In this document: positions 7,831-63,914 of the stretch, piece by piece
Layout: each line of letters starts with the position of its first letter
Numbering within the stretch: position 1 is the stretch's first letter
Assembly (NCBI GenBank): GCA_905178155.1
Contig: CAJINV010000005.1
Span: 4,319,556-4,383,555, forward strand
Direction of reading: 5' to 3'
DNA length: 64,000 nucleotides
DNA from: Amoebophrya sp. A120
Lineage: Eukaryota; Protista; Dinoflagellata
The notes under the pieces: generated by a model
Seen by the model: the letters and a program-made list of their open reading frames with translations, nothing else
Database searches by the model: none
Told to the model about the DNA's origin: nothing
Program-made: the position numbers and the translations under genes

Positions 7831-10800
7831 CTACTTGCGCGCCTTCTGTTCCACCTTGGCCATGATGTTTTTTTGCTTGTCAGAATGATACGACTTTTGC
7901 AGGTTGTCGGTGTAGAAATTGTACTCCCAGTCGTTTATTTTCTTGGCTTGATACGCCGCCTGCACTTCCTCCTGGGTCAACATCCCGCCGCCACCACCAC
8001 CGGGCGCAGCGGCTCTTTGCTGCTGCCCCTGCCGGTTCGCAAAATACTGCTGACCAAAGCCGCCGGCTGCAGGACCCCCGTTACCTGGTAGAACAAGTAC
8101 AGAAGATGAGCATCAGAAATCAAACAGAATCCAGTACTGAATTCGTGGACTATTAACGACTTCAGTATCTGACGCCCGTCCTTCTAGAAAAGGCCGCCGC
8201 GTCTTCACACGATCTACATGCATTTCCGAGTGTCACCTGGATGCGAACTACCTTCTTCCTTACTTGAACCACCTAAGGAGGGCGTCGAAGAAGATCTACG
8301 AAAAAATATATCGAAATCGACGTGTGCAGCTACTAGACTGACATGATAGTTAGTGATACAAGCACGAACAAGAGCGATGGATCATCTTCTATTGGTACTT
8401 GATCTGCCGCCCTGACCGCCGCCCTGCAGCTTTCCTTGTATTCGGTCCACAATTGTCTGCTGCTTTTCAGAAAAGCTGTTCCGATCAAAATTGCTTTTCA
8501 TGAAGTTGAATTCCCAGTCATTGATTCGGCCACCGTCACGGGCTTGCACCATCTGCTCCTCCGTCATACCCCAAGCTGGTGACACACCGCCACCCCCCAT
8601 GGCAGCTGCTGTTATTTTTGTGGTTTATATACAACCTTTTCAACATCACGCGCCAACCGTGACTCGAGGAAACATCATCCGATGGAAGAGGTATCACGGA
8701 GAAACAACTCATGTCAACACATGGTGCTGACCTTGATTCATCATGCTGACTTTGTTCCCTTATCCTGTCTGGGAGAACTCATCTATTCTGATGTACTAAA
8801 ATCATTCCAATTGGCATACCTCCCGGTCCCGCGTCCCCTGGGGCGGGGGCCTCTATGGATGTGTCAGAGTTGAAATCGACAAAGTTGAAATAATTTGTCA
8901 TGCATAAAGAACTGGATGCCAGTTAGAAACCAGTTTCTAAGTGGCGCAAGACAAATTTCGGTGGTCCCTAAATCCAGTTTGTCATGCTTTTTAGGCAAAG
9001 AAGAGCGATTTTCTCATGCTACTTTAGCAGCTCGAGCTGTAACCCCAAACAGGCTTACAATCGGCCTCACCTGCCTGCTCTGCAACACATGTGCCTCGGG
9101 TCATGCATTTTATGCATTACAAATTCTTTCAACTTTGACAATTTCAAACCTCACGCTTCCATAGCCTCGCCATTGAGCTTGTTCTTGATTTTCTCCACGA
9201 CGGGGGCTTGCTTCTCCGTGACGTCCGTTGGGGCGCGCGCAAAGTTATTCAAAATGAAGTTGTAGTCCCACTCTACAATCTTCTGCTCCTTCAACGCGTC
9301 ATCAATCTCGCTCTTATGGTGAGGAAAGGTCCCAACCATTGTCCCCATACTCAAACGAGAAGTCTGCGATGCTGACTTGTGGCCGCAAGTCGCCTCCGCC
9401 TTGCATGGCAGCAATTGTCCCCGAGGCATCCGGCGAGGCGAGCGCTGGTGACGCCAGTCAGTCTACAAGACAGCTGTCTGCCGTACCAAGACAGCTGTCT
9501 GCCATACCAAACAGGGAGCCGCAGCGGATTCTCGCTGCAGCAGCCGCTCACTGCAAGACAGAATTGACTTGCGTGCCCAAAGAACCCAGCATCAGACAGA
9601 CTTCGTTTTGAACATGAGGAGGCGGGTTTTGTTTTTGATAGGTTTTGTGGAGTCCCCACAGCTCCGAATACTCGTCATCTGCAGATGGAGGATCAAACAC
9701 ATCGCAAAAAAAACAAGCTGAAGAGAGCTAGAACTTCGACCATTTACCACGGTAAACCCGTGCTGGCGAACCGGGGCGGGTTCGTTACATTTACGGAACG
9801 CAATTACTTTGAAACAGTGCAGAAGCAGAAGTACATGGAATAGGAATATTTGAATTAAGGGCATACCGCCAATCTCCGTCGTTTTCCCGCCTCGCACTTT
9901 TTCCTCGATCTCGGTTCGTCGCGCGACCTGCTTGTCCGTAAAGTGGGCATCCGGATCCGCGGCCAGTTTTTCCAGTTGATCCGAATAGAACTTGACTTCC
10001 CAATCACTGATCTTGTTTTCCTGCTTTGCCTGCGTGATCTGCTCCATGTTCAAGAACCCCGCGGGCACCGCCCCCGGCTGCGCCACACCGACTCCGCCGC
10101 CCATGTAGTTGAACCCACCTCCGTGCTGGGGCGGCGCAAAGTTAGTTGCTCCGAAACCGCCCGGCTGCTGCATCCCGAAATTATGCGGTTGTTGCTGTGG
10201 CTGCCCGAACGACCCCGGTTGTCCAAATTGACCAAACGTCTGTGCTTGCCCGATTTGCCCAAACTGCCCGAACCCCTGCTGTTGCATGGCGGGGGCAGCA
10301 CTGAAACCGCTCATGGGTGGCGCAGCAAACGCGGAAGCCGCCCCAGAGGAGGAAGAGGCCATTCCAGATCCACCGAGCTTCGCGTCAATCTTGGCTTTCT
10401 GAGCCTGCTGCTTCTCGCTGAGCTTCTCCGGGTCCCGGGCCAAATTACTCACAGAGAAATCGTACTCCCATTGCGTTATAATTCCGCTGGTCTGATGTGA
10501 TAGTGGAAAGGAGCGCCTAAGTCAAGCTTTGCAACGGCAAAAAAACCGCTATCAACAGTGGACACAGTGCCTACTTAGCATGATTGCGGTATTTGATTTC
10601 AGAAGTGGTCAAGGGAGCGGACACAGGACTTGCTTTCGATGTCCTGGCCGTTACATTTTCAATAAAAAAGAAAAAGGCACAACTTCAGGTCTACTTCCGA
10701 AAGCAAAACAAACCAAGAAGCCAAAAAACCTTTGCCTCATCCAGCCGGCCCTTGTTAGCGAAACACTCCGCAACCTTTTTCTCGATCTGGTCCTTGATGC

Positions 10801-10999
10801 TTGTCTGTTTCTCCGAGAGGGACTCTTTGGTCATGTTCTCGGTATAGAAGTTTTTTTCCCAGTCATTGATCCACTTGTTTTGGTGCGCAAAGTCGACGTC
10901 CTGGGGACCTAGTGTAGAGGCGGACGCTGTCATTTTCCGCCGCTTGCTTCCCGGCGATTCGTCGCCATCGCCCACATAGAAGCCTCCGTTGTCCGCCAT
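7831..10999 (-). CDS. Multi-exon protein with six copies of a ~45-aa helical 'IxDWExNF...SEKQ...KI' domain and Gly/Gln-rich linkers
   Basis: Repeats read in exons near 10760-10900, 10370-10490, 9890-10050, 9170-9310, 8420-8570 and 7831-7985. ATG at 10999, TAG at 7831-7833, basic PGSKRRK near the N-terminus. Some junctions unresolved. Confidence 0.75.
8854..9163. mobile_element. Introner-like TIR element, family D (310 bp)
   Basis: TATGGATGTGTCAG...CACGCTTCCATA, TSD GCCTC both sides. Removal gives NGEA|PAPRGRG in frame. Confidence 0.9.
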
Positions 11000-11577
11000 G
11001 ACGTGAGTGTGTGATTGGTTCAAAACTGTGCCAGGATCAACGCGAGCACGACCTCTAATTTCAAAAGTAGTTAAACTTACGACTGTTTTTGCGTAGGGCC
11101 TACAACTTTCTCGTCAAACCATAGAGAATCCGCGTGCCTGGGAGGTTCTTATAGTGGAAACGCTAGCAGGAAAATCGGAATTATATCACAACGATGGGAC
11201 CTCTAGACAACCTTCTCACTTGTTGGACGCGGGATGAAAACTAACGGGATCTTCGAACGTCAAAAGGTACAGCAGCGAAGCCTGCGCTTGAAGGAGAAGC
11301 CACTATAGATCAATAAGAAGCTCCTCTGCAGCTTCAAGTGGATCTCCGCATCAGACACTTTGTTTGCACCTTTTTGATTTGCTATGTTGAAAAACCTAAA
11401 AAAAGCCAATCAGCAAGTGCTGTGCATCGAAGTCTCTATTCATTGTTTGACGTGCCGCGCTCGAAGAACTTACTTTCTCGGCACACCACTGTGCCTCGTA
11501 CGCTGCAAAACAGCCGTTTGTGCACTTTGTCCAGAAACATCAAGTCTCCGTCCCGAGAAACAACGACCCACTCAGCG

Positions 11578-12659
11578 TCAAGGTTTCCAGAAACCCTCCA
11601 GGACTACGCGCCGAGTCTCTGAACCGACAGTACCACTAGCACGCTTTTCTGTCTCCGCATCGCGCGTTTCTTGGCTGCCCGCGAATTCACCGAACAATGC
11701 GTCTGGCGCTTCCGGGTGAAAAGCAGGTGGCGGCGGCAGGCCAGCTGCTTGCGTTCTGGATGTTCGCTCTGCAGCATCTTCCCAGGTGGTGGAACCTGCC
11801 GCCTTTCCTTCATGACTTATTTCCTGTGGTCGCGACAATGGCAAGTCGTGCTCCTCCGCGAACTGCACTACAAACCGAAAAAAACGCTCCGTAGGAAGAA
11901 CGTTGTGTTGGCAGATATAGTGCTCCGCATACCCCTGCGGCCAGACCATGACGAGTATAGAAGGAGGGTGGCAGCCTTGAAAAAACGCATGCATCGACAC
12001 AATTCTTCACATGCTGTTGTTCATCTCCCATAAAAATCTATTACATACATGCCTATCGGTACTATCAATCTGTGCCTTATTTGTTCAGCACCCTACTATT
12101 CACGATAAAATGCGTGGAGGATTCACGTCCCAGATCATCCAGAACCTCCTTCACAACTACCAGCACCAGTGACTTGATCAATCCGGGCCGCTGCATTCGG
12201 AGATCATAGGCAACGATGTCGCCCTAGCCGGTTACATACACATCCAACCAAAGAAATTCGGTCGATGACACCCTCTCTACTCCTTTAAGGTACACAGCAT
12301 TGGATAGTTCTCCGCTCGTGTTCAACAGTATCGAAATATTCCGCTTGGTATTCGCCACTACCAACGATTTCCCCCGGTGCAACCCTCGAGAACGCCAGGC
12401 CGCGATACTGCCGAAACTGCAAATAAACCTTCGAGGAGTGGTGCTGCCGTCGTCCGTCCTCCAGGTCGTGCCCGCTCGCCGCACGGATTAGAGTCTCTGC
12501 CTTTTCCACCAGGAAGCAAAACTTCCTTTTGGATTCGCCACCCCAGGCAAGAAACGCCTGCGGATTCGGAATGGGGCGATAATGTTCGATCCCTTTGGTG
12601 GAGGCAAAATATGCGAAAAGGTCGTTGCCTTCCTCAATTATTCCGTGGATGATGTCCAC
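11578..12659 (-). CDS. Hypothetical protein fragments (possibly spliced or decayed)
   Basis: ORFs 12285-12659 and 11578-12000 with protein-like composition. No recognisable motif. Confidence 0.25.
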
Positions 12660-12912
12660 AATCTCCCAAATGTGGTGCCAAAACGATGAACCCGAGCGTG
12701 CTAGCGTAGTCTGCTGACAATAAAACCTACATTAGTAACTTACACATCATGCAGACAGAAGAGGCCCCGTGACTCACTGCATAGCCTGTGTTCTTGTCAT
12801 CCGAGTTTTATTTTTGCGGTAAATAATAAAATTGTGCATTGTCTTTAGGCGGAGGCGATGGATGCAAGATCACTACAATTCAACGTGGTAGCGGTTCGAG
12901 TTCGCCTACAAA

Positions 12913-13218
12913 TATGGATGTGTCAGAATCGAAATTGACAAAATCGAAAAATTTGCGATGCACAAGATCGATGCCAGTTGGAGACTCAGTTTCCAAGTGG
13001 CGCATGACAAATTTCGCGAGCACCCAAATCCAGTCTGTCATGCTGTTTGGGCAAAGAAGACTGCTCCTGTCATGCTACTCCGGCAGCACATTGCACACCC
13101 GTGAACAGGCTTACAATCGGTCTCATTTGCCTGCTCCCCAATACAGGCTTTCAGTGCCCTGCGTTTTATGCATTACAAGTTTTTCGATTTTGTCGATTTC
13201 GATCCTGACACATCCATA
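12913..13218. mobile_element. Introner-like TIR element, family D (306 bp), host gene unclear
   Basis: TATGGATGTGTCAGAATCGAAAT...GATTTCGATCCTGACACATCCATA, TSD ACAAA. Internally similar to 8854 and 31776. Confidence 0.9.
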
Positions 13219-14529
13219 ACAAAGTAAGATAAAGTAGTTCCCGGAGATAAACGAGGTGCATCACGGCGACTGAAACGAGTAGGCAGACGCATGCAGCGAG
13301 CGATCGAAAAAACCATGGCATGTCCAGAAAGATGAAATGCCAACGTTGCGTCCGAGACTCCGTCTTGCATCTATGACGATCGAGTCAGCTACGTGTTTGA
13401 TGATCCAGCACTTGGAGAAGGTTTATGATTTGCTCGACGACGTTTTTCATGAAGAAAGCACTCCTGTTTAGTGGTTATTCATTCCTATCAGTATACGATG
13501 AGATGCGAACGATCGAAACTGAACAGGCACAAGAACTTCCGCTTGAAGATAAGGGAACGAATAATTTTTCGTCCGTCGTTGTGTACAAATTGTGTGTAGT
13601 CCCACTGCTCCTCGAGGGCGTGGCCCTGCTTACACATATTATCTCGGCCACGACAGCACAAGCATAGAAGATGTACAAGAATGTGGATGTGCTATTCCAC
13701 CACTGGAATATAGAAATTTCGTTGTCGTCGATGTCGTCATCGTGATGATGTCCTCGGTCCCTTATAACCAAATTATGCTCTGTTCTGCTGCCGACCGGAA
13801 AAACGGAACAGCTTCCATACAACTACTCCCGAAATTCCATGGCTCTGATACACTTACCAGTATGTACAATTCAACAACCTTACACTTTTTTCCCTTCAAT
13901 TTCGCTTTACAGGCGTACGCAAAGAGCGAGTTCGAGCAAAATGAGCTACTTGGTTTGGTTGAATGCTAAGAGTAGAATCCGGCTCTGTAGTGCACTATGT
14001 CAACAACAACATCTGCCTCGCACTTGCAAAACATTTCCTTTTGCTGGTTCCTCTATTCTTAGGTGCTTCGAAACATTCTGTGACATTGCCAGTTCTAGCT
14101 GCGATCGATTCACTGTATTTTGAATCTGGTGCAGGAAGCTCGAGCGCGACAAAAGCTGCAGCCGAAAAGGTTAAAGTTGTGATAGTAAATCTAAATGTGG
14201 TCACATCGCATTAGGTCGTCTTTCCCTTCTCAACTGCCTGTTTCGTCGTCGTGTGAGAAAGTTTCCAACCCGACTTGTGACTGGCGCGACGAATTACTGA
14301 TCCCAAGAAGTAGATCTTGAATTCGCGAGACCATCTTCTACATCAGCTGAAAGCAGCAACAGCTACCATAGTATGTAAAAAAATATCAGAAGTATCTTTT
14401 TTGCATGTCGCTTGCTAGGAGAAAAGCACCAGCAGCAGCACAGACAGCCAGTGACGGTGCGCCGCCCAGGGACGAGATGATGACTCGACATGTTTTTTTT
14501 TCTTCATATGGTCGTGCATAAAAATACCA

Positions 14530-17500
14530 TCAAACGAGCTCCGGGGGGTGTAGTTCGTCGGCTGTACTATCGCACTGCTGCAGACCCGCCATGTAGAGCG
14601 CTGAATTGGCGTAGGCTTTCCCCTCCGCCATTCCCTTTGCCTGCGCGTGCTCCTCGTCCTCGCAGAGCAGGATGCCTTGGATGATGGGCTTGTCCTGCTG
14701 GAGCGCCAGTGACATCAGCCCTTGCACCAGCGCCGCTCTGTCGGTCTCCAGCGTGGAAAGGTTGGTTCGCTTCTCGTTCGGCACGAGCATGCCTAGGACG
14801 ATGACTGCGTCGACTACCCGGTGCTTCCGCGAGAGCAGTGCTTTGGTGCCCGTCACCAGGTCGAGGTGTCCCGCCGTGGGGTGGCACTCCACCCGGGCGC
14901 CGCAGGCTGCGAGGTACTCCCGCGCGGCGTCGACGATGGGGGCGAGCAGTTTTTCGTTCCACTTCGTCGACACGATGAGCACCGTCAGTGGCTCGGGCGG
15001 CACGGGCGAACGCACGACGTGCTGTTCTTGTGGCGGGGGGGCGCCGGTTCCAGCTCCCGCAGGAAGAACCTCCCGGGGGCCGGAAGTAAACGGCGCACCA
15101 TTTCTACTAGTACTTGACACTCTCGCGGCGACGTCCTCGTCCGGGGCGCCGTCGCTCCTCGGCGTAGGACCGCCGGGAAGTAGATCTTTGCTCTTCCCGC
15201 GCGAGGACTCCTCTGCCCTGGCGCTGGTCTGCGCTCGCGCGAGCTTCCCGCTGCGCTCCAGCGTGTCGCCTACTGCGCCCGAGTTTAGCTCCCGCTCCAG
15301 GTCCAGGTTGAAGGTCTGCATGATGGTCCGGTGCTGCAACTGGTTCTTTTTGGTCTCCAGGTAGCGAAAGTTGTCCCGGTTGGGGCTCGTGGGCAGGGAC
15401 CGGACCTGCACGTCGGGAATGGTTTCCGCCAGGACGCTATCAAATGTAAAAATGTCTGGGTCTGGAAACTTGTAATGCTAAAATGTGCATGATGGACACA
15501 CTTCCCAATGCAGACCAGCATGACAACTTTCCGGAGCACTTTCTCATAGGCAGCCCGCATGAGAAACTGCGTTTTTGCATGACAAACATGGCTGCGGCTT
15601 TTGTCGGTTATGCAATACAGATTTTCCAGAAATGTACCGCTAGCATTACAAGTTCCAACTTTCCAGACCCAGACACATTTGCAATCCATAGACACTCTCC
15701 TTCTCGGGATTATTGGTGTACAGCAAAATCTTCCGCAGATTCAGCTCCCGCAGCGCGTTCTATCAAATGCAAAAGTGTCTGGGTCTGGAAACTTGTGATG
15801 CTGAGTGGCGTAGCATGAAGAGGCCACAAGTGCTGGCTCAGCATGACAAACTTCTGAGCTTGTATGTCTTGCCTATTCTGCATGACTAATTGCGTCTCCG
15901 CATGACAGAAAAATGCGGCTCTTGGGCAACGTGCATGACAGATTTAATAGTCATGCCAGACAAGCATGACAAACATGCATTCTTCCAGACCCAGACATTT
16001 TTACATTTGATACGTTCACGGCGGCGTCGAAATTCCGGTAGTCGTTGTGGAACCCCAGACGGTGATTGGCCTGCACTGTGTCCACCTCCTCGCAGATCTG
16101 CAGGTCGTAAGCACGGATCTTGTTGTAGAGCCCAATGCCGCGACCCTCATGACCCTTGATGTAAACCAGCACCCCAAGCTTCTCCTCCTCCATCACCTTG
16201 ATGTTGTGGTAATTTTGTAACCAAATCAGTCGCAGCTTCTCATCGGGAACGACACAACAACTACAGCAGATGACTGAAGACGAAAGATGGAGATGAGGAA
16301 CAATACTGAATAAGCTTGGGCAAGCATTGCAAAGAGAGCCATGGACTTCAGGACAAGAACCACAACACCAGCTGGATGTATCTATGTATTTACCTTCATA
16401 AACATCTTCAACTGCGCCCCACAATCGCACAACCTGGACCCAAGCGTATCGCCTGTGAAGCACTCGGAGTGAATGCGGACAGGTACGCGTTTCACGCCGC
16501 TACTTAGCGCGTTTGCGTCGCCGGCGATCAGCAAAACAAGCTCGGATCCTCTCCTCCCCGGCTTCACCACCATCCTAGTCGGCAAACGCAAGTCATGGAA
16601 TCGCAGCGTTGCAGAAGCGTCGCCCTGGAAAAAAATTTGGTCCACAATGAAATCTGCAGCTTTCTTGTGTTTTCTGATTTTCATTTTTTCAACGTGCGAC
16701 GTTAAGTATTAAAACGGAGACCTAGAAAGATGATGCCAAAAATCGCAAAAACACATAGTATACCTGGTCTTTTTTCACGTCTGCGGGCACCGCCGTGAGC
16801 TGGTCGTCTTCCTCCTGTTCTAAGGGTGTGTGCTGCTCAAACAGGCGGGCCCAGCGCTTCATGGCGTCCGTGTGCCTCCGGTAGTGCACGATGTCACTCA
16901 CATACACCATGGGAATCCCGTGTTCGGTGGCGAAGGCGCGGGATTCACCCTCCCGGAACATCTCGCCATTGTCCGCCATCAGCTCCGCCAGGGCTCCGAC
17001 GTATCACGTCGAAAACAAGTGCCCCCACGACCCCAGAACTTGACACGATTTGTATAATTGCAAAGCTTCCTAAGCAGGGAAACACTCCCCACGTTCGTGC
17101 ATGTATCAATCAGCATCACAAATGTTAAACGGCAACATCACGATTCTTGCGAAAGACCCCAGCAACAGCTGTGCCTGTCATTTCTTAAAAGATGCCTTGC
17201 CCGGCTGGGTTCTGTGTCAGGGAGACTCAGAGCAGTCCTCCTTTCATGCATACGATGAAAAGCTCTTCATTTCAAAACCTCACGCATCAGACCGTTTTCT
17301 TGCAGCTTCCGGGGTCGTCCCTGATGTGGGAGCACTTTATTTCACGGGAATACGACGGGGTGCTTCACGTTGGGTGCCAGCCGACAGAAGTCAAAGGTCG
17401 CTTCCGTGTGTCCCTGCCTTACGTATTATGAACAGGAAAAATCCCCCGCCCCTTATCAAAAAGGAAATCTGTGATGCTGGATTTGCGTGAGGCGTGAGGC

Positions 17501-19191
17501 TGTGATGCTGGATTTGCGCACACAAATCAGATTTGTATGGCAGGAAGGCATTGCGACCAGATCCCCAGGCTAGGTAGGGGCGTACGGGTCTAGTTGTTCA
17601 GCATTGCAAACGGTTGACCTTTAGGCCCAACAGCATGACAAATCGCTTCCAGAATGGGGCGGAAGCTTCTGCCCTTGTCTTCTTGCAAGACAAATGCGAT
17701 TTGTGACCTCAAATCAGCAACACAAATTTTCGGAAAGATACCTTTTCGATATGGGGAGGGTGGATTTTTCCTCTCAATACGTAGACGCCGTCGTCCTTGG
17801 CGTATCAAATGTAAAAATGTCTGGGTCTGGAAGATTCTGAGATTTGTCATGCATGTTTTGCATGACCCAGGATGTCTGTAATGCACGACCGCGCATCACA
17901 GATCTTGAGAGGGCTCCCTGATGCCAACTCCGCATGACAAACGCCCTCCCCGCGTAGCACAAATTAGACTCCTCTTGCTGGTCATGCAATACAGATTTTT
18001 CTAAAGTCCAGAGTTAGCATCACAAGTTCTAATCTTCCAGACCCAGACATTTTTACAGTTGATATGGCGCACAGGGGAAACATGTGCCCCGGCTTGCCGA
18101 AGGCCTCCGGCCGGTTGCGGATGTCGCAGAAGCCCCGCAGCGTGGCCACGCGGTCGGCGGCGCTGACCCCGGTCGTGGTGCCCACGAGGTAGTCCGTGGA
18201 CACGTAAAAGTTGGTCCCGTTCGGGTCCGTGTTTTTGGTGGTGGCGGGGTGCAGGCCGAAGGCCTCGAGGCGTTCCTTCCCGGTGGTCACGCACACGATG
18301 CCGGTGGACTTGCGGATCATGAACGCCATCTGGGCGGGGGTGCAGTATGCATTGCAAATATCGATCTGGGTCTCAAAGCTTGTGATGCTGAATTGCGAAA
18401 GATTAAAGTGTTTGCAATGGCAGCCAAGCATGACAAGTCTGCGAGACGCCTCCTGATGCCCAACATGCATTACAAATTGCGTTTGTGCATGGCAAAGGAA
18501 GCGGCTTTTTAGCTGCTCAACACGCAACACAGATTCTCCAGGAATGGAAGACACGCATTACAACTTCCATTTTTCCAGACCCAGACATTTTTGCATTCGA
18601 TATGCAGTGCTCCGCGGCGATGATCAGATCGCATTCGTTCTCCCGCTCCGGTGCGTCCATGACTAGGACAAATATCAAATGCAAAAATGTCTGGGTCTGG
18701 AAGGTTACCAGGTTTGTCATGCATATTTTACATGACTCAGGATGTCTGTAATGCATGATCTGGCATCACATATTTTTAGAGGCCTTCCTGATGCCTATCC
18801 CGCATGACAAATGCCCTCCCCGCGTAGCGCAAACTGGGCTCTTATTGCTGGTCATGCAATACAGATTTTTTTAGAGTCCAAAGTTAGCGTCACAAGTTCC
18901 AACCTTCCAGACCCAGACACTTTTACATTTGATAACAAACTCGCCCTGCCCAAACGCCTCCAGCGCGGGCTCCATGCGCGCGATGGCTTCCCGGGCCTCC
19001 TTGGTGGGAACCGGCCGTGGCTCCTCGCGGGCCGCCGGCTCGGAAATCGACCTGGCCACTACGGCGCTGGTGGGAGGCGGCAGCGCGCTGAAACCGCTTT
19101 TCATCTTGTTGCCTCGGGGTTGTTTTTCCTCGGCACCTGTCGAGCCCCGGGGGTTGGGCCCCGGTGGAACCAGCTTCACTTTGGTCGCCAT
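14530..19191 (-). CDS. ribBA: Riboflavin biosynthesis fusion: DHBP synthase (RibB) + GTP cyclohydrolase II (RibA) + lumazine-synthase-like domain (RibH); 10 exons
   Basis: After removing 7 introners and 2 GT-AG introns (16197-16393, 16625-16763): Rib[38 protein letters not shown]; Rib[33 protein letters not shown]; C-terminal [22 protein letters not shown]. Confidence 0.92.
15438..15690. mobile_element. Introner-like TIR element, family A (253 bp)
   Basis: TATCAAATGTAAAAATGTCTGGGTCTGGAA...TTCCAGACCCAGACACATTTGCAATCCATA, TSD GACGC/GACAC. Join reads PEKESV|LAETIP. Confidence 0.92.
15761..16012. mobile_element. Introner-like TIR element, family A (252 bp)
   Basis: About 30-bp TIR, TSD CGTTC. 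Join reads FDAAVN|[17 protein letters not shown]. Confidence 0.93.
17002..17352. mobile_element. Introner-like element with degenerate TIR, family C (351 bp)
   Basis: TATCACGTCGAAAACAAGTGC...GCACTTTATTTCACGGGAATA, TSD CGACG. Join reads KHPV|[13 protein letters not shown]. Confidence 0.85.
17427..17779. mobile_element. Introner-like TIR element, family B (353 bp, with a 31-bp internal duplication)
   Basis: TATGAACAGGAAAAATCC...GGATTTTTCCTCTCAATA, TSD CGTAT/CGTAG. Join reads DGVY|VRQGHTEA. Closely similar to 55953. Confidence 0.9.
17803..18064. mobile_element. Introner-like TIR element, family A (262 bp)
   Basis: TIRs present, TSD TGGCG. Join reads FPLCA|KDDGV. Confidence 0.93.
18346..18602. 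mobile_element. Introner-like TIR element, family A (257 bp)
   Basis: Left TIR degenerate, TSD TGCAG. Join reads IAAEHC|[10 protein letters not shown]. Confidence 0.9.
18673..18934. mobile_element. Introner-like TIR element, family A (262 bp)
   Basis: TIRs present, TSD ACAAA. Join reads GEFV|[11 protein letters not shown]. Internally close to 17803. Confidence 0.93.
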
Positions 19192-20397
19192 AAGTATAGG
19201 TCGTGGGTGAGATTCGCTAGAAACTTCAATGCTGCTGCATGTTGTTGACTAAAACTCAAAGAAACACTATATTTATAGTTGTGCAAAAAAAGCTGTACAC
19301 GCAAAATATCTGCGACGGACTCAAGTACTCAGCGGGAATAAATACTCAAGATTGGGTGAAAAAAAAACGGCTTTCTGGGCCACTATCAATGCTGGACTCC
19401 AAAAATCTACTACTTCTTCAACCGAATACTATATCAGTTGGTCTCGGTGCGTGGAAAAAAACTCGTTGCCGCGACAAAAATAAAGCGGGCAACAAAGAAT
19501 ATTAGGATGCCGATTACTGCTCTAGCGTAGAGGCTCGGACCGAGCTCCAGAAGGGTCTGCGACTGCAAAACTGCACAAGTAGCAAAGCACGGGCTTCCAG
19601 AAAGGATGAAGGAAGATGACTTGCTATTTCGGACGGGGTCTTTGCAGAGGGGGCGAGAATGTTCTTGTTGGTGTTTGGCCGTGAGAGGCGCATAAAGGTA
19701 CTACAACCTATCGACTCTTTGGGGGTAGCAACTACTACTAGAATTACAGTCTGGAAAAATACTAGTGGTTTGGTAGACAATAGTGCAGGTGGGGGCGGAT
19801 CCTTCAACGGGGGTGAAAAGGGTACTGTCTCGGTCAATTGTCAAAAAGAAACGTCGGTCATGTGTGTCAGGTCACAAAGACGAGCAGTACCATGTCAGAT
19901 GTGCCTGCAAGTGCAACTAGAACTAACAACTTTTTCTTCTGATAATGTGGTTCATGTGGAACAGCGTTTTTTACAATCCATGTTTATTCATTCTGAACCG
20001 AGCTCTTGTTCACAGTGGCCGTTTTCCGAAATTTTTTAGCATCAAGTGCCACGCTCGGTAACCGACGCCTGCATAAAAAATCGAAATGCGCAACATTCTC
20101 AAGGTTTTGCGCAACCGACGTCGTCTTTTTGGTGCTTTTCGACCATTGTAGATGTACCGAAGATAAGTTCAGCGCACCGAAAAAAAGCTCGTGAAGAAGA
20201 CATTATGTTGAAACACGACATTTCTGCATAGACCAGGCTTGTCGCCGCGATTGCTCTTATTTGCGCTTCCCGGTAATCACATTAATCGCGATTCTGTTTT
20301 TCTGTCTGCTGCTGACAAAGAGCAAGCAGAAACGATAAGAGCAGTCTGTCTCCTATGGGAGAGTTGTTTTGTTTCGTCTGACAATAATTTACTCGAC

Positions 20398-23878: not shown

Positions 23879-26800
23879 CTAATTTCGTACGAAAGTTGGC
23901 AAACTGGTATCGTCTTCATGCACCGGAAGGAGAAAGTCTTTCCCAAACAGGAGGGGCCACACAGGCCCAAGACCTTGCGGAGCGCACAATTCGGATCCCA
24001 ACTTCATATCCTGAACGTGCGCGAGCGGTTCTTTCTTCACCACGAACAACTCCCCGCGGTACGTGGAGAGCAAGGGCTGCAAGAAAATTTCAAGTTTTCA
24101 TCCTTCGCAATTTTCCATGACGACCGGACATCGCGACGCGAATGTCGTTCCCATTCATATCATCTATTGTTCTTCACCAGGTTGCTCAAATAAACCAGAA
24201 TGTGGTTTAATAATATTCTGCTCAAGGTACTATAATCATACCGTTTTTCCCTGCTGACCCCGCATTTGCATGAGCTGTTGGACAATGCCCTGCTGACATT
24301 CTGTCAAGTCGTCGGCCACCGTGCGGAAGTTGCCCAAGTGCAAGAAGTCTGATAGCAGGAAAGTGTTGATCTCCATCGCACGAAAAACCAAGTCCAGGTA
24401 CCTGTGTTACAACTTTTCTCTCCATCATCATCTCCCGTCGGAGGTGTTCCTCTCTTGCGAGTGGTCCGGAGCGATTGTTCAGCAGGTACATCAATCATAG
24501 AAATTTAGAATATCAATATCACGCGAAAGATGAACGACGCGCTACCTACGAGAAGAACCTCAAGGTCAACATCACAAGCACCAGAAAAAGACACTGTACC
24601 TGCTATTCGCGTTCTGTGTGAGCTCGTGCTCTGGACGCCCCAGGAATATGGTGTATTCAGCAATGCGAAGATCGTCGGGAAGCACGGGGTATCAAATGTA
24701 AAAATGTCTCGGTCTGGCAGCGTCATGCTATTTCTACATGACACAGAAGGGCTGGCATGGAAGCTCTAGCATCACAGGTTTCGAGAAGCTTCCGCAATGC
24801 CGAATCCGCATGACAAACCCCCCACCTTGGTGACAGAAAGTGGGCAGCTTTTGCTACCTATGCATGAGAGATTTTTCTGTGTTCTGAAATGCGCATCACA
24901 AGTTTGTATTCTCCCAGACCCAGACACTTTTGCAGTTCATACGGGGGTACACGACCGGGAGGCAAGCGTCGTCAGTGTCATGTTCGCGAAGCTAGTCGGG
25001 TAGTACCTTGTTTTTCAATAGGGGAAAAAGATATTTACTATATCTTTGCGGTACTATCTTTCCCACATGTTCTTGCCATCGTCCTGGCGACCGCGTACTT
25101 CATCAGATGAAACTCTAATTTTCAAAGTGGACGCAGTTGTAGCACCATATCATCAAATCTGAGACCGCGACCGTAAAATCTGATTCTGAAGATAGGAAAA
25201 AAATGGAAAGTCAAAGTACTCGGTCGCCAACTTCAAGGCGGCGTCAAAATAGGGGGCCATATTGTTCTTTCCGGTTTCGGGAGACACGTCGCCGTCGGGG
25301 AATTTTCCACCATTTGCGTCGAACACCTGCGCCGCCAGCTCCATCGCGGTCTCGTCGAGACAGAGCTCCTGAACGTAGAGATGCGTCGCCTTCCGGTCGA
25401 TCAGCTTCAATCGGTCCTCCAGGATCTTCAAGCTCTCCGTCCCGCAGCATCAACTGCAAATATGTCGGCGGGGAGGAGGTCTGAGAAAATGCACAGGTTC
25501 ATCCCGCAGGTTTTGCAGTGCTCAGAAGCTTTGCAATGCGGGGCCTAGCAGCAAGAATGCTGATTATACTCTGCATGTTGACACGTAGGCCACTGCTTCT
25601 ACTTTTATATCAAAGTGGCCTAAAATGTACAGCTTCTGCCATGCATTGTATCTATGGCAGATGATTTTTCCGTGACTGACCGAGAGTATGTTGATCACAA
25701 GTTTGCGGCACCTTCCCAGACCACGACGACCCGGATCGATTGTACCTGCAATGCGTACACAGCGGCACACCACAACACTCAGCTCCAAATCGCGGTCTAC
25801 CTGATCCAACACCGCGGTGTGCATGCGCTGAAACGCTGCGAAAGCGGGGTTGATCGCCCACGAGTTCATCACCGTATATCCTGATTAAAAACGTCCCCAC
25901 ACCAGAGTCCAGACGGGAAACCTGCTAGACAAATCAGCCAGCCTTGGTTCTTGTCTGGCATGACAAGTTTGTCCTTGTGGTGTAATCCTGTTTAGCTAGT
26001 TCAGAAGCATCACAGATCTAGCATGGCATGCTGATCCTAGCGTCACAAATTCCAAAACACGAATAGAAAATGCTTCTCATAGGGCTCCGCATCATCATCA
26101 TCATGTAGTGGACACCCGCTCCCAGCGCCACAGGTCAAGGATCCCCTCCCCGGGGGGTGGGCGAGGAAGCACTTTCGGCGACCTCATCATACAAAAGCCG
26201 AGCGCTACCACGGCGAGTCGCCCCAAGAAAAGTGCCGACCAGTCGGGAACTACCCACCACACCTGATCAGCACAGCCCGGCCAGCTAGCCGAGCGCGACA
26301 GCCCAACATACAGAACGATCCAGGACCCGATCCATTTTACGCCATACGTTTTTGCTCTCACGGAAGAGACGACGCACCCCTTTGGGTTAAGGGGCGAGAC
26401 TCTCCCTTAAGCCGCAACCCCACCCGGACAGGGGAGGCTGGACCATTTGTGCCTTACCTGCGGCACGGGCGAACAAGGCGAGTGCACGGACCACAGTTGT
26501 CAAACCATAGACCAGTTGTCTGGCGCTGCTGACTGGCAACCCACCTGGGGCACAGCGACAACTTAAAGGCTTAGTTTGTGCGTGGCAGTCTTAGTGCAGC
26601 CCTGTTCTGCAATAGAAGCAAAGGGCGGGAGGGGGGACGGGGGTCTTACGCCAGAGTCGCGACGGAACTTACCTGGACGTAGGGTGCCCGCACGAGAAAC
26701 TTTTTTGGCATGCAGAATTGCATGACAACTCTGGGGTGGGGACGTTTTTACTCAGGATACCGTATCCTGGTACTTCATCGTGCGTGAAATCACCGCAGCG

Positions 26801-47404: not shown

Positions 47405-47442
47405 AAGGCGTCCTCAGCTGGAAATCCAGCTGAGGACGCCTT
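47405..47442. repeat. Perfect inverted repeat (18-bp arms, 2-nt spacer)
   Basis: AAGGCGTCCTCAGCTGGA-AA-TCCAGCTGAGGACGCCTT. Confidence 0.9.
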
Positions 47443-49375: not shown

Positions 49376-49396
49376 CGCCCCCGCCGGGCCCGTGCA

Positions 49397-54763: not shown

Positions 54764-57045
54764 ATGGAGTTCGAGCAGAGCACGTGGCACCCCATTCGGC
54801 ACCCGATCCGGGACGTGGCGCTCATTCTGCCGAAAGTGAAGCCGAATGTGTACAAGGAGCACCCGAAGTTTTCTGAGGGGAAGCGCATGAACTACTACCT
54901 AACCGTTGGGTTGTCCGTCTTCCTGGTCACCCAGTTCTTTTTCATCTTTCGTCAGCAGTACCTGTTAGAGCTCCTCGTGATCGAATTTTCCGCCTGTGCC
55001 GCCTACCTCTACTACCTGGAAAACTACACAAAGGACGACGAAGACGTGTGTCCGCTCGGCTGCACGACGTTTTTCGCTGTCCTGTTCGGGGCCGTGTTCG
55101 GGGCGGTGGCTTGCCACGACCATTTTTTGCACTACGTCAGTTTCTACAAGGGCAACACGCTCACCCGCGTGCTGGCCAACGACCCGGCGTTCACGCTGCA
55201 AAACCGAGAGGCGAACCACATCGAATTCTTACACGCGCAGGTCGACACGCGCCGCCCGACCGCGTGGCAGGATGGCCAGGGCGCCACCTACTGTCTGGCC
55301 CCCATCCTGGAGCCCGCGGACCTACTTTCAGTGGGAAAGAGCGAGAAGGAGGAGGAAAATAAAAACAAGAAGACGCCCGTGCAGTACTACGCGATAGGAA
55401 AGGACTGCTGCTCCATGGTCCCAAAAGCGCCGGCAATCACGGACGCCGATAAGGGGACGACCATAGGCGTCGCGGACGAAAAGGCGTTGCCGAAGTTTCT
55501 GGCGCGACAGGCCGCGGCCCGCGAAAACGCAACCGCGTTCGCAAAGGCGCAGAACCTGACCGACTCGTTCACGTGCGGGGACGCGGGAAGGGCACGGAAA
55601 TCGGGCCCGGCCGGCCTATATGGATTGCAAAAATGTCTGGGTCTGGAAGAATGCAACTTGTGATGCTGCTTTTGGATTCCAACAAAAATCTGTATTGCAT
55701 GAGTAGCAAAAGGAGTATAATTTTTGCTACAAGGATAGGGAATTTGTCATGCGGAATAGGCATCAAGATGCCCTCAAAAAATATGTGATGCTAGGGCGTG
55801 CATCACAGACATCATGCCTCATGCAAGACGTGCATCACAAGTTTCAGAATCTTCCAGACCCAGACATTTTTACAGTTGATAGCCTACTCGACATCTTTTT
55901 GCACGGCAACTCCAGCGGTCACGGCATGGTGGACCCAACCCTGCAAGGGCTGTATCGAAAGGAAAAATCCCCTCTCCCCATATCGAAACGGAATTTCTGA
56001 TGCTGGATTTGTATACACAATTCAGCTGTGTATTGCAGGAAGGCATTGCGGCCAGATCCCCAACCTAGGTAGGGGCGTGTGGGTCTAGTTGTTCAGCATG
56101 GCAAACGGCTGCCCTCTAGGCCCAACAGCATGGCAAATCGCTTTCATAATGGGGCGGAAGCTTTTGCCCCTGTCTTCTTGCAAGACAAATGTTATTTGTG
56201 GCCTCAAATCAGCAACACAAATTTTCGGAAACCTTCCTTTTCAATATGGGGAGGGGGAGTTTTTTCTTTCAATAGGCTGCACAGCGACCTTCCCCTGACC
56301 AAGCTGCTCTCGTTGAAAGGCCTGCTGTCCTTCGACCCACTCACACAGCTCCTGTCCTTCGACACCTTTCTCCCCAGCAACTACGCAGAGAAGCGAAAGT
56401 ACGACCAGGCACGGAGGATGGCGGAGCAGCGCTATAATCTGACCACGGTCATGGAAGATCTGGAGAGAAACGCGTACCCGTCTATGGAACCTGAGGTAAG
56501 TAAGCCAGCGCGCGCTGTCTTTTTTGTTTTTCTGTCTGTGATGTCAAACAAACTTTTCCGCGAGGGGACTTTGCTCAGATTTTACGGATTCTTTGCATGA
56601 TCTCATTTGAGCACAGGGCACTTCTATATTTTTGGATAACTTTTTCGTGCTGGTTCAGATACGTTTTTTTACAATAATGGTAGAATAATTTCTAGTTGTA
56701 CCACGAGCACAACCATTACCTGAGGTTATCTACGTCCACTGGACGCTGGATCCGGTGCTGTATGCGCAGGGAAAACTGCGCGATAGTTTGTACTTCTTTT
56801 GCCTTTCCACCCTCTGCTTCTTCTTGCCCGTCATGTACCTCTTGAGCTACCAGTTGGCAAAGCTCGCCACACAGGATGCGTTCGAGGAACGGCAAGAGGA
56901 GATAGAGGCGGGCCGCGAGCGCGGCGGGGGCGGGAGCACGGCCGAGGAGGCGGAGGATAGCAATTACGTACTGGATTCGGACTCCTGGGCTAACGAAAGT
57001 CTCAACGAGGAAGCCGCGTCGCTATTAGACGACAACTCAATATGA
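54764..57045 (+). CDS. Hypothetical multi-pass membrane protein with a Cys-containing luminal domain, multi-exon
   Basis: Three N-terminal TM segments, YCLAPI..YYAIGKDCC, and a C-terminal TM. Frames join across two introners (PAGL|LDIF and LQGL|HSDL). Confidence 0.75.
55619..55881. mobile_element. Introner-like TIR element, family A (263 bp)
   Basis: TATGGATTGCAAAAATGTCTGGGTCTGGAAG...TACAGTTGATA, TSD GCCTA. Confidence 0.92.
55953..56274. mobile_element. Introner-like TIR element, family B (322 bp)
   Basis: TATCGAAAGGAAAAATCCCCTCTCCCCATAT...TTTTTCTTTCAATA, TSD GGCTG. Confidence 0.92.
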
Positions 57046-59711: not shown

Positions 59712-62284
59712 ATGTGGATTTCCGAGCTCTTCGCTTGCCTGTCATGCGTATCGCAACTGGCGGAAGTTTTGACACGGGGGCAGGGTCGACGGGTCTTGTT
59801 CGCATTCACCGTCTCTGCATTCTGGGGCGTGACGAATTATGTGGAATTCAGTCCTCCGACGAAGCTCCTTGCGCTGCGCTTCATTTCACCACCTCAGCGC
59901 CGAGACCGAGCGCCGGCGGGCGAAAAGACACCGCCCTCCACCGGACCAGCGCGAGAAGACGCCAGCCAGCTGCTCGTTCCGAGCAAAGGTGGAGCCCCCG
60001 CAGGCGCGTCACCCAAGAAACCTCCAGTGTACGGTCCCGAGACCCCACCTGCGTCCAAGCTGTTCTGCTTTACGTGGAGTCCGCTGCGCCAGCAGACGCA
60101 AGAGATGGCGCTGTGGCGGTTCGTGCGGGCGGAGCTGCGGAAGGTTTGCAACGCGCACCTTTTTTTCACGCACAAGAAAAGTCCTACTACTTCCGCCGTA
60201 GTTCTCCGGCGTCGCGCAGGAGCGTCCCCTTCTTCTCCGCAGCAGGGCGAAGGAGCAGGTCGTGCGCGACGAGCGGAGCAGGTGGTAGACCCGGGTCCGC
60301 AACAAGTGGCAGTGGCGGCTTTGGAAAGGATGTACGCCGCCGCGGTGATCGACACCAGTGCGGGAAGCCTCGAAATTTTGCGCAAAAAATACGGATCGCT
60401 GGAAGGGATGCAAAGGGAGATCCGCACGGGAAGGGATGAAGAAAGCTACCAAGACATCGTCGAACTGCCCCTGAACACGACGAAAATCGGTATTCTCGAG
60501 ACGAAACTATCCTGTGCAAAACTATCGTATTCGAATTGCAATCTTGCATATACAAATCCTGTTCTTAAGGTAGATCCGCATTACAAATTTTATTTCTCAT
60601 GCTGAAGGAATTTGTAATGCATTTATACGAGTGCGATACTTTTGCAATGCATAGAAACACCAAAACGGCAAAGGATTGTGGCCCGCCCTCCAGTTATGAA
60701 TTCGATCTGTTGACGTAGGAGCTCCTGTGGGGTTAGTGGTAGATGTGTAAAGGTTTTGGTATGCAGTGCTCCAGTAATAGATATCTTTATGCCTCGTAGT
60801 TGTTGCTTGGCTCAGACTCCTGGGAGCTTGATACCCGGCGCGGAATAACTTTGGTTCTACGACCTCTGTTTCGTCGTGTCTTCTCCGGTTAAGGATTTCA
60901 GTTCCCATTACTAGCTCCAGAACGCGGGAAATAAGATGCTCTCTTTCCATACCGTTGGATGTTCCAGCATTTCTACCTGTTCGACCGTTTTGGCTACTGG
61001 CTCCTGCCGGAATTGGATCACTTGCTGCTGAGTCGGGATCGTGTGTTTGCCGCCGTGCGCGACACCATTCGGGACTGGGTGCGGAAGTACATCGCGAGCC
61101 GGAAGAGCCTGGCCTCGACGAACGCGACCGTCCAGGGGGAGCACGCCTTGCTGGAGACGACTTTCCTCGAGCGGGACGTGAACCCCTTTGTGCAGCCGGT
61201 GCAGTTGTCCCTCGGCAACCTGTTCGTGTGGACACAGGCCGCGTTGGCCTGCATGAAGGACCACTGGAGCGACTGGGGGCAGTTGACGCAGGACCTGAAC
61301 AAGCCCATCTACCACGGGTGTCCGCGGATGTCGCGGGAGAGCGGCAGCTGGCCCAATTGCGCGCAGGACATCGTGTTCCAACTGCAAATGGGGCCCCGAA
61401 TGCTCAAACAGTGCAAGCGAAGAAGCAGTAGCGAGGTCGATAATTTCGAAAAGGAAGGGAAGTGGCCCGTCGCGGGAGATGGTGCAGGAAGTCCCTCCAA
61501 CTACACAACAAGTGGAACAACAACAGCATCGTTTTCCTTCACCATAGGCAGCAGAGAAAGAGAGCGCACTGAGATGATGACGATCCACCCCGCCAACACC
61601 GCCTGCGGAGGCAGCAAGTACTGTGCGCAGCTTCCGGAGCTAGATGGAATCTGTCTTGACTTCGCTGACAAATTCAGCAGTGCCGTGTATACAACTTCTA
61701 CACCCGACAAGAATAGTAAACGAGCGGAGAAGGCCACCACCACCAAAATTTTCCGAGAAAATACTAAAGAGCATCCGCTGGTTCGTCTGTCTGCAAGTAT
61801 CGTGAGCACCTGTGACGCGTTTCTGATGAAATTTGACGAGGTCGCGAAGAACGCGTTAGCCTACGGCGCCGATATGTGGGTGCTCCCACGAAGCAGTTCG
61901 AAGTACTGGCGTATGCGGAAGTTGTTTTACGTTGCGGCGAACCGCACCAGCACCGCCGCCGCGCGGATGTTCGGCCCGAACTGGTTGCAGAAAGCGCGTC
62001 TGCCCATGGAAAAACAGTCCAAGGAGCGGTTCATAATGACGGTGGGGAAGAACGTCGACCTCTCGCGCAAGAAACAAACCGCGAAGCGGTTCTACGCGGA
62101 GCTGTTCTCGCCGGAGCAGGGCTACAACATGTTTCCCATCACGGAGGACGACCTGTTCCAGACGTGGGGACAGATGTCCGCCGAAACTGCCGTGTTGCAC
62201 AACATGAAATGTCCGGAGTACCACGGGATCGGGGTGCTTGCGGTGCAGCCAATCCTGTTCGGCAAGTCGAATTTGGGCGGGTAG
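59712..62284 (+). CDS. Hypothetical protein, multi-exon
   Basis: ORFs 59712-60605 and 60959-62284 with GC3-biased codons. Introner at 60508 joins ETK|HQNG. The next junction is unresolved. Confidence 0.6.
60508..60653. mobile_element. Introner-like TIR element, family H (146 bp)
   Basis: TATCCTGTGCAAAACTATCG...CGATACTTTTGCAATGCATA, TSD GAAAC. Internal GCATTACAAAT and ATTTGTAATGC. Confidence 0.85.
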
Positions 62285-62505
62285 TACGAATTAATATATC
62301 CGGAAATTGTCTGGGGGAAGGTGGTGAACGCCACGCACTGTAACCTTTATTTTTTGACAACGTGATGAAGTAGCTCCCGGCATTTTCTACTCGTTGGCGT
62401 TGCGATTGTGTTTTCTTTCGAAAATAAGAAACGTTTGAGGGAAACTACTGTTGAACAAATACGAAACACCACGCACCGTACAGCTGGGTCATCTTCTGTA
62501 CACGG

Positions 62506-63914
62506 ATGATTTGGATGAAACTTTTGCACCAACATGATACGAAAAACTGGCAGCAGCCACGCGAACCCTGTGCGCAAATTTTACGGGAATGGGGCCAGTT
62601 TGACGTCCCAACCATTCCTAAAAAAGAAATCTGCGGCCCTGCCGCTTCATCTTTCGCGGGCTTTGGTTTGTTCCGAGAGGAAAATGAAAATAACATCAAC
62701 CAAAATATCAACATACTCCCTAATTTTCACTGGTACCGACCCACCGTGACCGTCGTCATCACTAGATATTTTCGTTTCTGCAAAGAAGTAGAACCGCCGT
62801 ACTTCACGCACTTCAATATGTGGATGAACACGGAGCCTTTGTGGGTGGAGTTGAACGAATTGGGCGCCGAGACCGGGGCGGCCGATCCGAATTCGTACCG
62901 CCGGCGGCAGCTGCTAACCTGGCGGTTGTCCAAGTCCTACGTGCTCTACTGCCTGCTCCTGCTCGTCGCCTCCACCTTTTTGCTCTTCTACAACCTGAAG
63001 CGGTGGGTGCAGTACGGCCACCTGCCCGAGTGGGACCGGCACGTCTGGGAGGAGTGGCTCGAGATTGGGATCACCGTGTGCCTCACCGCCGAAACCGCCA
63101 CGACGCTGTACCTGCTTGGCTTCCGGAAATTCATGCGGTCCTACTGGCTTCGGTTCGATCTAGCCGTTGTCGTCGTTCTCTGGGTGTGCGTCTTTCTCGT
63201 CGCGTATCCGCTGTGACAACCGTTGCGGCCTGATGTCGCATCATCAAGGTTTATCCCCATAGTGGTGTTCAGCTGTCTTGTACTCGAGAAAATAAAGACC
63301 TTTGTTGTGCAGTAGCGCACATCTTGTCAGTACTGTGATTGACCTAGATTTGCATTTTTGTTTCTATACTCTCTTGTTCCGTTGCTGCCGTTTCTTTAGG
63401 GGGGAGAAAATAAAGTTGTCACAAGTGATACCTCCGCGTCCAAGCTCGGGTGGGTATGGATTGCAAAAATGTCTGGGTCTGGAAACTTGTGATGCTAAAA
63501 TGTGGATGATGAAAACCGTTCCGAATGCAACACAGCATGACAACTTTCCAGAGCGCTCTCTCATAGGGAATCCGCATGAGAAACTGCGTTATTTCCGCGT
63601 GTACAAAAGATGCTGTGACTTTTGTTGGCTATGCCATACAGATTTCCTAGGTATGGAGAGCTAGCATTGTTACAAGTTGCAACCTTCCAGACCCAGACGT
63701 TTTTGCGTTTGATAGTGGGTGATGACCGACAAAAACGCCGAGACGAAGAAGCAAGAGGACAGCATGTTCGAGAATCTGGAGCTTCCATTTTTGATTCTCC
63801 GCTTCACGGTGCAACCCCTTCGTGTCGTGTCGCAGATCACGCAGCTGGTGCACCGCACGAGCACGAGTGCCGACGTGCCTACGACAATGCACAACTCCCC
63901 CTCCCCATCATTTG
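62506..63914 (+). CDS. Voltage-sensor-like (Ion_trans S1-S4-type) membrane protein, partial and running off the window
   Basis: WEEWLEIGITVCLTAE, FMRSYWLRFDLAVVV, and a later exon LGW|VMTDK..LPFLILRFTVQPLRVV. Start uncertain. Confidence 0.6.
63455..63714. mobile_element. Introner-like TIR element, family A (260 bp)
   Basis: TIRs present, TSD GTGGG. Interior close to 15438. Confidence 0.92.

Follow-up and report, generated by a model that had tools for sequence, protein, structure and literature searches.

Introner elements in the window

The window analysed here is a stretch of 64,000 nucleotides of the Amoebophrya sp. A120 genome (contig CAJINV010000005.1), and it contains 24 elements with TAT...ATA ends that are 146-883 bp long and span positions 8854 to 63714. 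Each is flanked by a direct repeat, the target-site duplication (TSD), which is an exact 5-bp repeat in 20 elements and carries one mismatch in the other four (15438, 17427, 27220 and 29583; elements are named by their first position). A single element, 27220, has a CAT variant, located at its 3' end in the sense of the RNA. The elements have the properties of miniature inverted-repeat transposable elements (MITEs): they have terminal inverted repeats (TIRs) and a TSD of fixed length, are short, lack an open reading frame (ORF) and occur in many copies. They are introners of the class already published for Amoebophrya A120, and their end profiles fit the published motif, an inverted repeat that begins with TAT and continues with seven variable nucleotides and at least three A.

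An earlier reading of the window, made from its letters alone and called here the sequence-only reading, had counted 24 complete elements over this span, with 5-bp repeats, one CAT variant and about eight TIR families, and had rightly named the Amoebophrya introners. We find the same number of elements, which we take to be the same ones, as that reading gave no element list. The CAT variant is as described, and the presence of TAT...ATA elements with 5-bp TSDs is confirmed, the repeat being exact for 20 of the 24 and imperfect for four. Grouping of the 24 elements by BLAST gives 4 clusters and 5 singletons, close to the roughly eight families proposed.

The scan criterion was TAT...ATA ends plus an exact 5-bp direct repeat, at 60-1200 nt. 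It returned 27 pairs in the window, 20 of them with at least 11/20 TIR matches; block shuffles (n = 30) gave a mean of 0.37 such pairs and a maximum of 2. Nineteen of these 20 high-TIR pairs are true elements, and 38128-38440, which has 10/20 TIR matches and is homologous to 17427, brings the total with an exact TSD to 20. Two pairs were dropped: 24165-25149 as a likely chance pair with ends unlike those of any family, and 22271-22454, an exact pair that is a chance match within coding sequence of an exon.

Sequencing runs were mapped to two parts of the window, four on 12700-32300 and four on 3800-13600. Run X11 consists of raw RNA reads, X3 and X6 are contigs of runs guessed to be RNA, and X1 is a DNA-like run with a flat depth of 44 over 3800-13600. 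Coverage by X12 is confined to the 3' part of one gene, and X13 gave zero aligned reads. Over bins that hold elements the X1 depth is 5,000-24,000 against 44, a figure that is not a copy number. Joints in raw reads were listed at a 5% threshold. For comparison we used a sample of a second assembly, at least 154 loci (L001-L154) totalling 600 kb and fetched with the TIR pattern of one family. This assembly shares element families with the window, and one of its genes matches a protein, P0003, that is labelled A120 by its own source. In the list below a joint is given by the two positions that it brings together, and the register k is the number of TSD bases in the mRNA that come from the upstream copy.

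8854..9163, minus: introner, TSD GCCTC, host gene on minus; joint 8848>9164 (315 = 310+5) in X6 and X3 contigs, absent from X1
12913..13218, no strand assigned: introner, TSD ACAAA, no recognisable coding frame; no joint among those listed
15438..15690, minus: introner in riboflavin gene, TSD with one mismatch; joint 15432>15691, 257 raw X11 reads; register 2-5
15761..16012, minus: introner in riboflavin gene; joint 15755>16013, 358 X11 reads
17002..17352, minus: introner in riboflavin gene; joint 16996>17353, 462 X11 reads
17427..17779, minus: introner, TSD with one mismatch; joint 17425>18065 with 14 spacer letters between, 182 X11 reads
17803..18064, minus: introner in riboflavin gene; same X11 reads as for 17427
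18346..18602, minus: introner in riboflavin gene; joint 18340>18603, 196 X11 reads
18673..18934, minus: introner in riboflavin gene; joint 18667>18935, 209 X11 reads
24690..24941, minus (strand predicted from frame): introner; no joint among those listed
25877..26759, minus (strand predicted): introner of 883 bp with a nested insertion; no joint among those listed
27220..27549, minus: introner with 3' CAT variant, TSD with one mismatch; joint inferred, register 3-6
29583..29871, minus: introner in HIT/DcpS_C gene (Pfam), TSD with one mismatch; X6 contig piece ends at 29577, joint inferred, register 3-5
29934..30195, minus (strand predicted): introner; no joint among those listed
31776..32063, minus (strand predicted): introner in NudC-like gene; no joint among those listed
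38128..38440, minus: introner in ankyrin gene (sequence, frame, Pfam)
38510..38680, minus: introner in ankyrin gene (sequence, frame, Pfam)
40871..41166, minus: introner (sequence, frame)
43267..43545, minus: introner (sequence, frame)
45042..45252, minus: introner in Peptidase_M24 gene (sequence, frame, Pfam)
55619..55881, plus: introner in plus-strand gene (sequence, frame)
55953..56274, plus: introner in plus-strand gene (sequence, frame)
60508..60653, host strand uncertain, plus likely from neighbouring genes: introner
63455..63714, plus: introner in Ion_trans gene (sequence, frame, Pfam)

Seven older elements with diverged TSDs were added through a profile scan and RNA; three are confirmed by RNA and four are candidates.

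6075..6351, minus: older element, outside the span of the sequence-only reading; TSD with 2 mismatches; joint 6069>6352 (282 = 277+5) in a single X6 contig of depth 3.3; register 4-5
9315..9640, minus: older element, TSD with 2 mismatches; joint 9309>9641 (331 = 326+5) in X6 and X3; register 4-5; end pairing decayed (duplex z -1.5)
11956..12306, minus: older element, no TSD identity left; joint 11951>12308 (356 = 351+5) in a single X6 contig with a 30-nt side, open frame across joint; register 4 only; without end pairing (duplex z -0.5)
4795..5152, minus: candidate older element, TSD with 3 mismatches; frame open after removal; no joint among those listed
25448..25753, minus: candidate older element, CAT at both ends, right end uncertain; no joint among those listed
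41230..41573, minus: candidate older element, GT-AG at register 4
63205..63430, plus: candidate older element in Ion_trans gene, TSD with 3 mismatches

The insertion nested in the 883-bp element lies at about 26094-26720, terminates in a (CAT)n run and is possibly the tail of an element of the kind without long terminal repeats (non-LTR). Part of it recurs in a related element of locus L027, with 97% identity over 184 nt, and a sequence like it, located at another locus, reaches the high depth of 315 in X3.

Removal of the elements from RNA

Fifteen of the 24 elements fall in the mapped stretches, and the nine from 38128 onward fall outside them. A joint that skips exactly the length of the element plus 5 nt is seen at eight of the 15; at two it is inferred, and five (12913, 24690, 25877, 29934 and 31776) have no joint among those listed. 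With the older elements 6075, 9315 and 11956, joints of this type are listed at 11 elements, and contig ends add 27220, where an X6 contig piece begins at 27549 and its 1493 further letters belong elsewhere, and 29583. Among the joints listed there is one per element. Those at 8854, 6075, 9315 and 11956 are found in contigs of the runs guessed to be RNA.

The fullest data come from the riboflavin gene:

13594..19202, minus: expressed host gene encoding fused DHBP synthase, GTP cyclohydrolase II and lumazine synthase; 7 introners and 2 GT-AG introns

All seven of its elements are skipped at exactly length plus 5, with 182-462 X11 reads per joint, and the same joints recur in X3 and X6 contigs. 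Following the RNA-listed joints, the gene has an ORF of 766 aa, in which Pfam recognises the DHBP synthase, GTP cyclohydrolase II and lumazine synthase domains; with the elements retained, no open frame exceeds 315 aa. Poly(A)-derived ends lie near 13590. The transcript loses the element and 5 nt, which restores the protein exactly, and the precise removal as introns that the sequence-only reading had proposed is observed in the RNA. On the plus strand, 17427..17779 is followed by a 23-nt spacer and then by the next element; this spacer (17780-17802) is retained as a micro-exon in 174 reads.

When the element and one repeat are deleted, the reading frame stays open for 18 codons or more on each side in 23 of the 24 elements, the exception being 12913. 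The number equals that of the restored frames claimed earlier, and the motifs that had been described as rebuilt or abutting are found at or beside the junctions. The frame test is weak when taken alone, because many antisense frames are open too.

Position of the cut within the repeat

Identical repeats leave six possible positions for the cut, but when the two copies differ the mRNA reveals which of them is kept. The values of k allowed at 13 junctions (11 listed, 2 inferred) have only k = 4 in common. The lower bound is set by 6075 and 9315, which require 4 or 5, and the upper bound by 11956, which has different flanking bases at each of the five positions and permits 4 alone. A second upper bound comes from a gene with 15 introns in locus L068, which matches the A120 protein P0003 at 356/357 residues for k = 1-4 and acquires one extra mismatch at k = 0 and at k = 5. 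Protein searches yielded no further register-informative genes; a representative search led to a gene call that starts past the junction and to uninformative homologues.

At the junctions tested, cleavage falls 1 nt upstream of TAT on the 5' side and 4 nt beyond ATA on the 3' side, so that of the five TSD bases left in the mRNA four stem from the upstream copy and the fifth from the downstream one; we infer that the same holds genome-wide. The intron is thus likely N-TAT...ATA-NNNN, with one fixed register. Farhat et al. 2021 (PMC7789003), in the portions of the paper available to us, describe A120 introners as RNA-supported non-canonical introns of about 240 nt whose inverted repeat is TAT followed by seven variable bases and at least three A. 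They report direct repeats of 3-5 nt at the borders, with a 5-bp example shown, and variable splice sites; they state that the 'border position remains unknown' and reject general mobilisation by transposases. The elements studied here are the same ones, with a 5-bp repeat (0-1 mismatch in 337/374 elements of the second assembly) and non-canonical removal from RNA, to which we add the 5-bp TSD, the single register and a shared internal motif described below. New here are the single splice register, a one-sided constraint at intron position +2 and the motif that unites the families. We found no report of these three features in the literature searched, which for Farhat et al. was text without figures and outside which most subscription journals fell, and a term search of the accessible text of PMC13326754 gave no mention of Amoebophrya.

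What the splicing machinery probably reads

At k = 4, the first T of the element becomes position +2 of the intron. We counted substitutions in 289 exact-TSD elements of the second assembly. A single change within a terminal triplet was present in 24 of them, and a strand could be assigned to 23 of the 24. There are 0 substitutions of the +2 T and 10 of its inverted-repeat partner, the A at -5 (p = 0.002); the neighbouring pairs gave 3 versus 2 (+3/-6) and 5 versus 3 (+4/-7). TIR positions 4-26 are symmetric, the lowest p of 23 tests (0.018) not being significant after allowing for the number of tests. A constraint at +2 only, on one side and following transcription, points to the U at donor position +2, since the demands of a hairpin or of a transposase would fall equally on the two ends. 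Constraint of the donor +2 U is a well-established property of the spliceosome.

Canonical introns seen in the RNA begin with GTA in six of seven cases and with GTAT in three. The elements do not share the GT-AG borders of U2 introns (7/296 at register 4, and at most 7 at any register), but they do share the strand-specific invariant +2 U (0 versus 10). The TSD bases are indistinguishable from a codon-matched background, with no detectable contribution of the target, and both orientations occur in large families. Strong end pairing is present in 11 of the 13 spliced elements (z -3.3 to -13.7); two old ones are without it. Given the constraint at +2 only, the canonical introns that start with GTA, the lack of a target contribution and the splicing of unpaired old elements, we consider removal by the spliceosome the likeliest route. 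At register 4, 296 elements divide by intron phase into 146/66/84 (p 2e-8), a phase-0 excess not explained by TSD base bias; we do not use it as support, because target choice could cause it.

Published splice-site counts bear on the register to a limited degree. Donors are N-T in 68-71% of cases in three large A120 families (summed from the tables of PMC12130899 available to us), and 9/9 top A120 donor motifs are N-T in the portion of PMC7789003 available. In the former tables A-N makes up about 68% of acceptors, where register 4 would lead one to expect 28%. This A-N excess suggests an aligner preference, hence the N-T counts are only consistent with register 4.

Alternatively, removal at the same register could be the work of a pathway other than the spliceosome, in which the complementary TAT/ATA triplets or the end hairpin are recognised at fixed spacers. 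The nonconventional introns of Euglena, in the part of PMC12501133 accessible to us, likewise lack GT-AG and carry a complementary triplet at fixed unequal distances, CAG/CTG at spacers 3 and 5-6 as compared with TAT/ATA at 1 and 4 here, such that N1-TAT...ATA-N4 parallels the Euglena code N3-CDG...CHG-N5-6. The strong pairing in 11/13 spliced elements, the dispensability of an AG acceptor, the persistence of TAT and ATA in old elements and the fact that U1 small nuclear RNA (snRNA) was undetected (PMC7789003, available portion) all fit such a pathway. However, pairing predicts equal constraint at the two termini, and the count is 0 versus 10; the skipped length is the same in two elements that lack end pairing; and the purine that starts exons in Euglena is not required here (C or T at 8854, 11956 and 18673). 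Taken together, these results make a Euglena-like pathway unlikely, although it deserves to be kept in view.

MITE-derived introns have also been described in Fritillaria borealis, where TIR/TSD elements became introns with a changed spliceosome. According to the accessible part of PMC11282704, donors there are AG and acceptors AC/AT, in contrast to the N-T donor and unconstrained acceptor found here.

Spread of the elements

The sequence-only reading had stated that one rule for ends and TSD holds across dissimilar families, and this is borne out in the 600 kb of the second assembly. Elements defined there by their TIRs have an exact 5-bp TSD in 56/59 cases and a TSD of 6-10 bp in none. When 5-bp matches are collected without regard to termini, 231/240 are TAT..ATA; repeat lengths of 3, 4, 6 and 7 give 165, 191, 23 and 16 matches, which from their end triplets look like shifted readings in or beside the same TIRs. 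Elements defined by profile (n = 374) have 0 TSD mismatches in 287 cases, one in 50, two in 20 and at least three in 17.

A motif, TGTVATGC, is present in 345/357 elements across 45 clusters, lying about 33-46 nt from each end and pointing towards the interior. In total it occurs 1065 times, compared with 8.5 in shuffles; outside elements, it occurs 5 times in 54.5 kb of window DNA, and it is absent from all seven old window elements. We take TGTVATGC to be a likely site for the transposase, one that decays when the element has become no more than an intron. The earlier proposal of one transposase type acting in trans on all families is supported by this motif common to 45 clusters, the enzyme itself being putative. 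As that proposal had it, the window showed no transposase, to the extent of the 24 ORFs screened.

We find no autonomous partner with the same ends in the 64-kb window or the 600 kb of loci. Long TAT..ATA spans in the loci were rejected as nested, repeat-expanded or chance, and the 238-aa ORF of a 1104-bp element in the loci has no Pfam match. The viral_contigs set gave 0 matches to the main TIR.

The TA..TA ends and the short stagger would point to an integrase-like DDE enzyme. IS3EU and GingerRoot elements have TA..TA termini with TIRs, as here, and an integrase-like DDE enzyme of IS3/IS481 type with a short stagger (PMC10045372 and PMC6839031, as far as accessible); their TSD is 6 bp rather than 5, a length found in 0/59 elements here. 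Gozashti et al. 2025 (PMC12130899, available part) describe A120 family 38 as a TIR element with homology to an integrase-like ORF, assigned to Ginger, with '5-bp TSD, TA/TA termini', and said to be without Ginger termini. The TSD and TA/TA termini of family 38 are like those of our elements, but an ORF-bearing element was not found here in the window and loci. The same source lists 58 families, with other automated TSD calls for A120 of 2 to 11 or missing. The sequence-only reading had missed this Ginger-like family, as well as the published TAT+7+AAA motif, and had not addressed the position of the cut in the repeat; its interpretation is otherwise supported. Ginger2 elements terminate in TG..CA, which the TAT..ATA ends here do not match. 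Their TSD of 4-5 bp does fit (PMC10045372, accessible part).

Alternatively, splicing could operate as described while the families derive from several unrelated transposon types, their ends being shared through selection by splicing. The available part of the survey of A120 introners derives them from non-LTR, LTR and a variety of TIR elements and includes one Mutator-like family whose TSD is 8-9 bp (PMC12130899), and the interiors of our elements form 45 clusters. Selection for splicing would not, however, fix the TSD length at 5, nor would it keep an orientation-symmetric motif that old, still-spliced introns have lost, which makes multiple origins improbable.

Interpretation

We propose that the elements are non-autonomous TIR introners of the A120 type that are removed with one 5-bp repeat at a fixed register, likely by a spliceosome that reads the +2 U, and that were likely spread by one integrase-like transposase; we give this a probability of roughly 0.6. 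The transposase would bind the inward-facing TGTVATGC together with the TAT ends, and the element would insert through a 5-bp staggered cut, in either orientation and with no detectable base preference at the site. Because TAT is present at both ends, a donor is available in either orientation. That donor would be N-U-A-U, resembling the G-U-A donors of adjacent canonical introns with +1 relaxed. As no AG is needed, the 3' site would likely be set by distance from a signal in the element end.

More broadly, we lean towards the view that A120 non-canonical introns obey one code: an N-U-A-U donor in which only the +2 U is essential, no acceptor dinucleotide, and a 3' cut four bases beyond the element. 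One transposon lineage, with a 5-bp stagger and TGTVATGC, would fit this code in both orientations and at any target.

Two further routes of removal were considered. The first is cleavage by a hairpin-triggered endonuclease followed by RTCB ligation, as in the SOS splicing of animals, which depends on AKAP17A, CAAP1 and RTCB. SOS splicing is triggered by paired inverted terminal repeats and removes TIR transposons from mRNA without regard to GU-AG, and the TIRs here are long; it is also imprecise and dependent on pairing, cutting at many sites and leaving indels (PMC12779559, accessible part), whereas removal here is exact, also without end pairing, with one joint per element among those listed and conserved domains rebuilt exactly. 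An SOS-like route thus seems very improbable. Excision at the level of DNA, like that of ciliate internal eliminated sequences, with RNA mirroring a rearranged template, would also yield precise loss of the element plus one repeat, but it is scarcely credible given that X1, at flat depth 44 over 3800-13600 (the extent of this test, in contigs that can lose rare variants), runs into the elements with zero exon-exon joints, and given that the strand-specific +2 constraint tracks the direction of transcription.

Several observations weigh against the proposal of spliceosomal removal at one register and spread by one transposase. With respect to removal, unspliced contigs lie within 11956-12306 at a depth of 3-4, compared with 8 for the spliced form, and the RNA status of X3 and X6 is only a guess. 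In approximately 200 X11 reads, an element end of 85 nt is fused to sequence of another locus; this end is the first 85 nt of the element family at 29934-30018, flanked by the other locus, which indicates that at least one copy elsewhere is retained in abundant RNA. With respect to the register, the upper bound comes from a single contig, of low depth and with one side of 30 nt, and from a single annotated protein. Tests of exon-likeness and of GC/AT on 69/75 elements with mismatched TSDs gave no register signal, and in the same 69-element test TSD position 1 favours the wrong copy by 21 to 7. Conservation is at none of the TIR positions higher at the 3' end, and thus gives no pointer to what sets the 3' cut. 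Neither a lariat nor a branch point nor pairing with an snRNA was seen, an Rfam search of the window gave no match, and, as noted above, U1 snRNA was undetected in these strains (PMC7789003). With respect to spread, no transposase is present among the 24 window ORFs or the 82 locus ORFs screened (the 80 longest of 126 filtered, plus 2), and none is reported for A120 in the accessible portion of PMC7789003. The 5-bp TSD breaks the 6-bp rule of IS3EU and GingerRoot, and the loci, having been fetched with the TIR of one family, over-represent that family (186/357).

If correct, the code would explain how exons have been filled by tens of thousands of elements without a change of residue. A transposon would become a perfect intron without borrowing a splice site from its target, and the spliceosome would have abandoned both the +1 G and the AG acceptor. 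The elements themselves are known; their mode of splicing was left open in 2021 (PMC7789003) and is still open in a 2024 review (PMC11282704), as far as the accessible parts of these sources go. A fixed register turns the undefined border into a testable rule, which predicts the 5' base of the lariat and the single base whose change should abolish splicing, and which allows gene models to be corrected wherever two repeats differ. TGTVATGC provides a handle for finding the missing transposase.

Neighbouring genes and other features

A GT-AG intron at 8609-8819 (minus) has the geometry of an introner, with a G-TAT start and ATA four bases before its end. It is one of seven canonical introns, and the likeness may be due to chance or to descent from an old introner. 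The region 7834-11000 (minus) gives a single transcript that encodes several copies of a short repeat, assigned to no family, with a WEY/WDY-N-F core. At about 47000-50500 there is a strand switch, with genes on the minus strand before it and on the plus strand after it; this interval includes a gap of 100 N and tandem repeats.

In the second assembly, locus L047 contains a 378-aa ORF at 1841-2974 (minus) with a GIY-YIG-like motif seen by eye and no Pfam match at E 0.1. The L068 gene used above for the register lies at 3119-8273 (plus) and encodes a UDP-GlcNAc dehydratase-like protein of 357 aa. All 15 of its introns are introners, and the spans between its elements go down to 13 and 16 nt.

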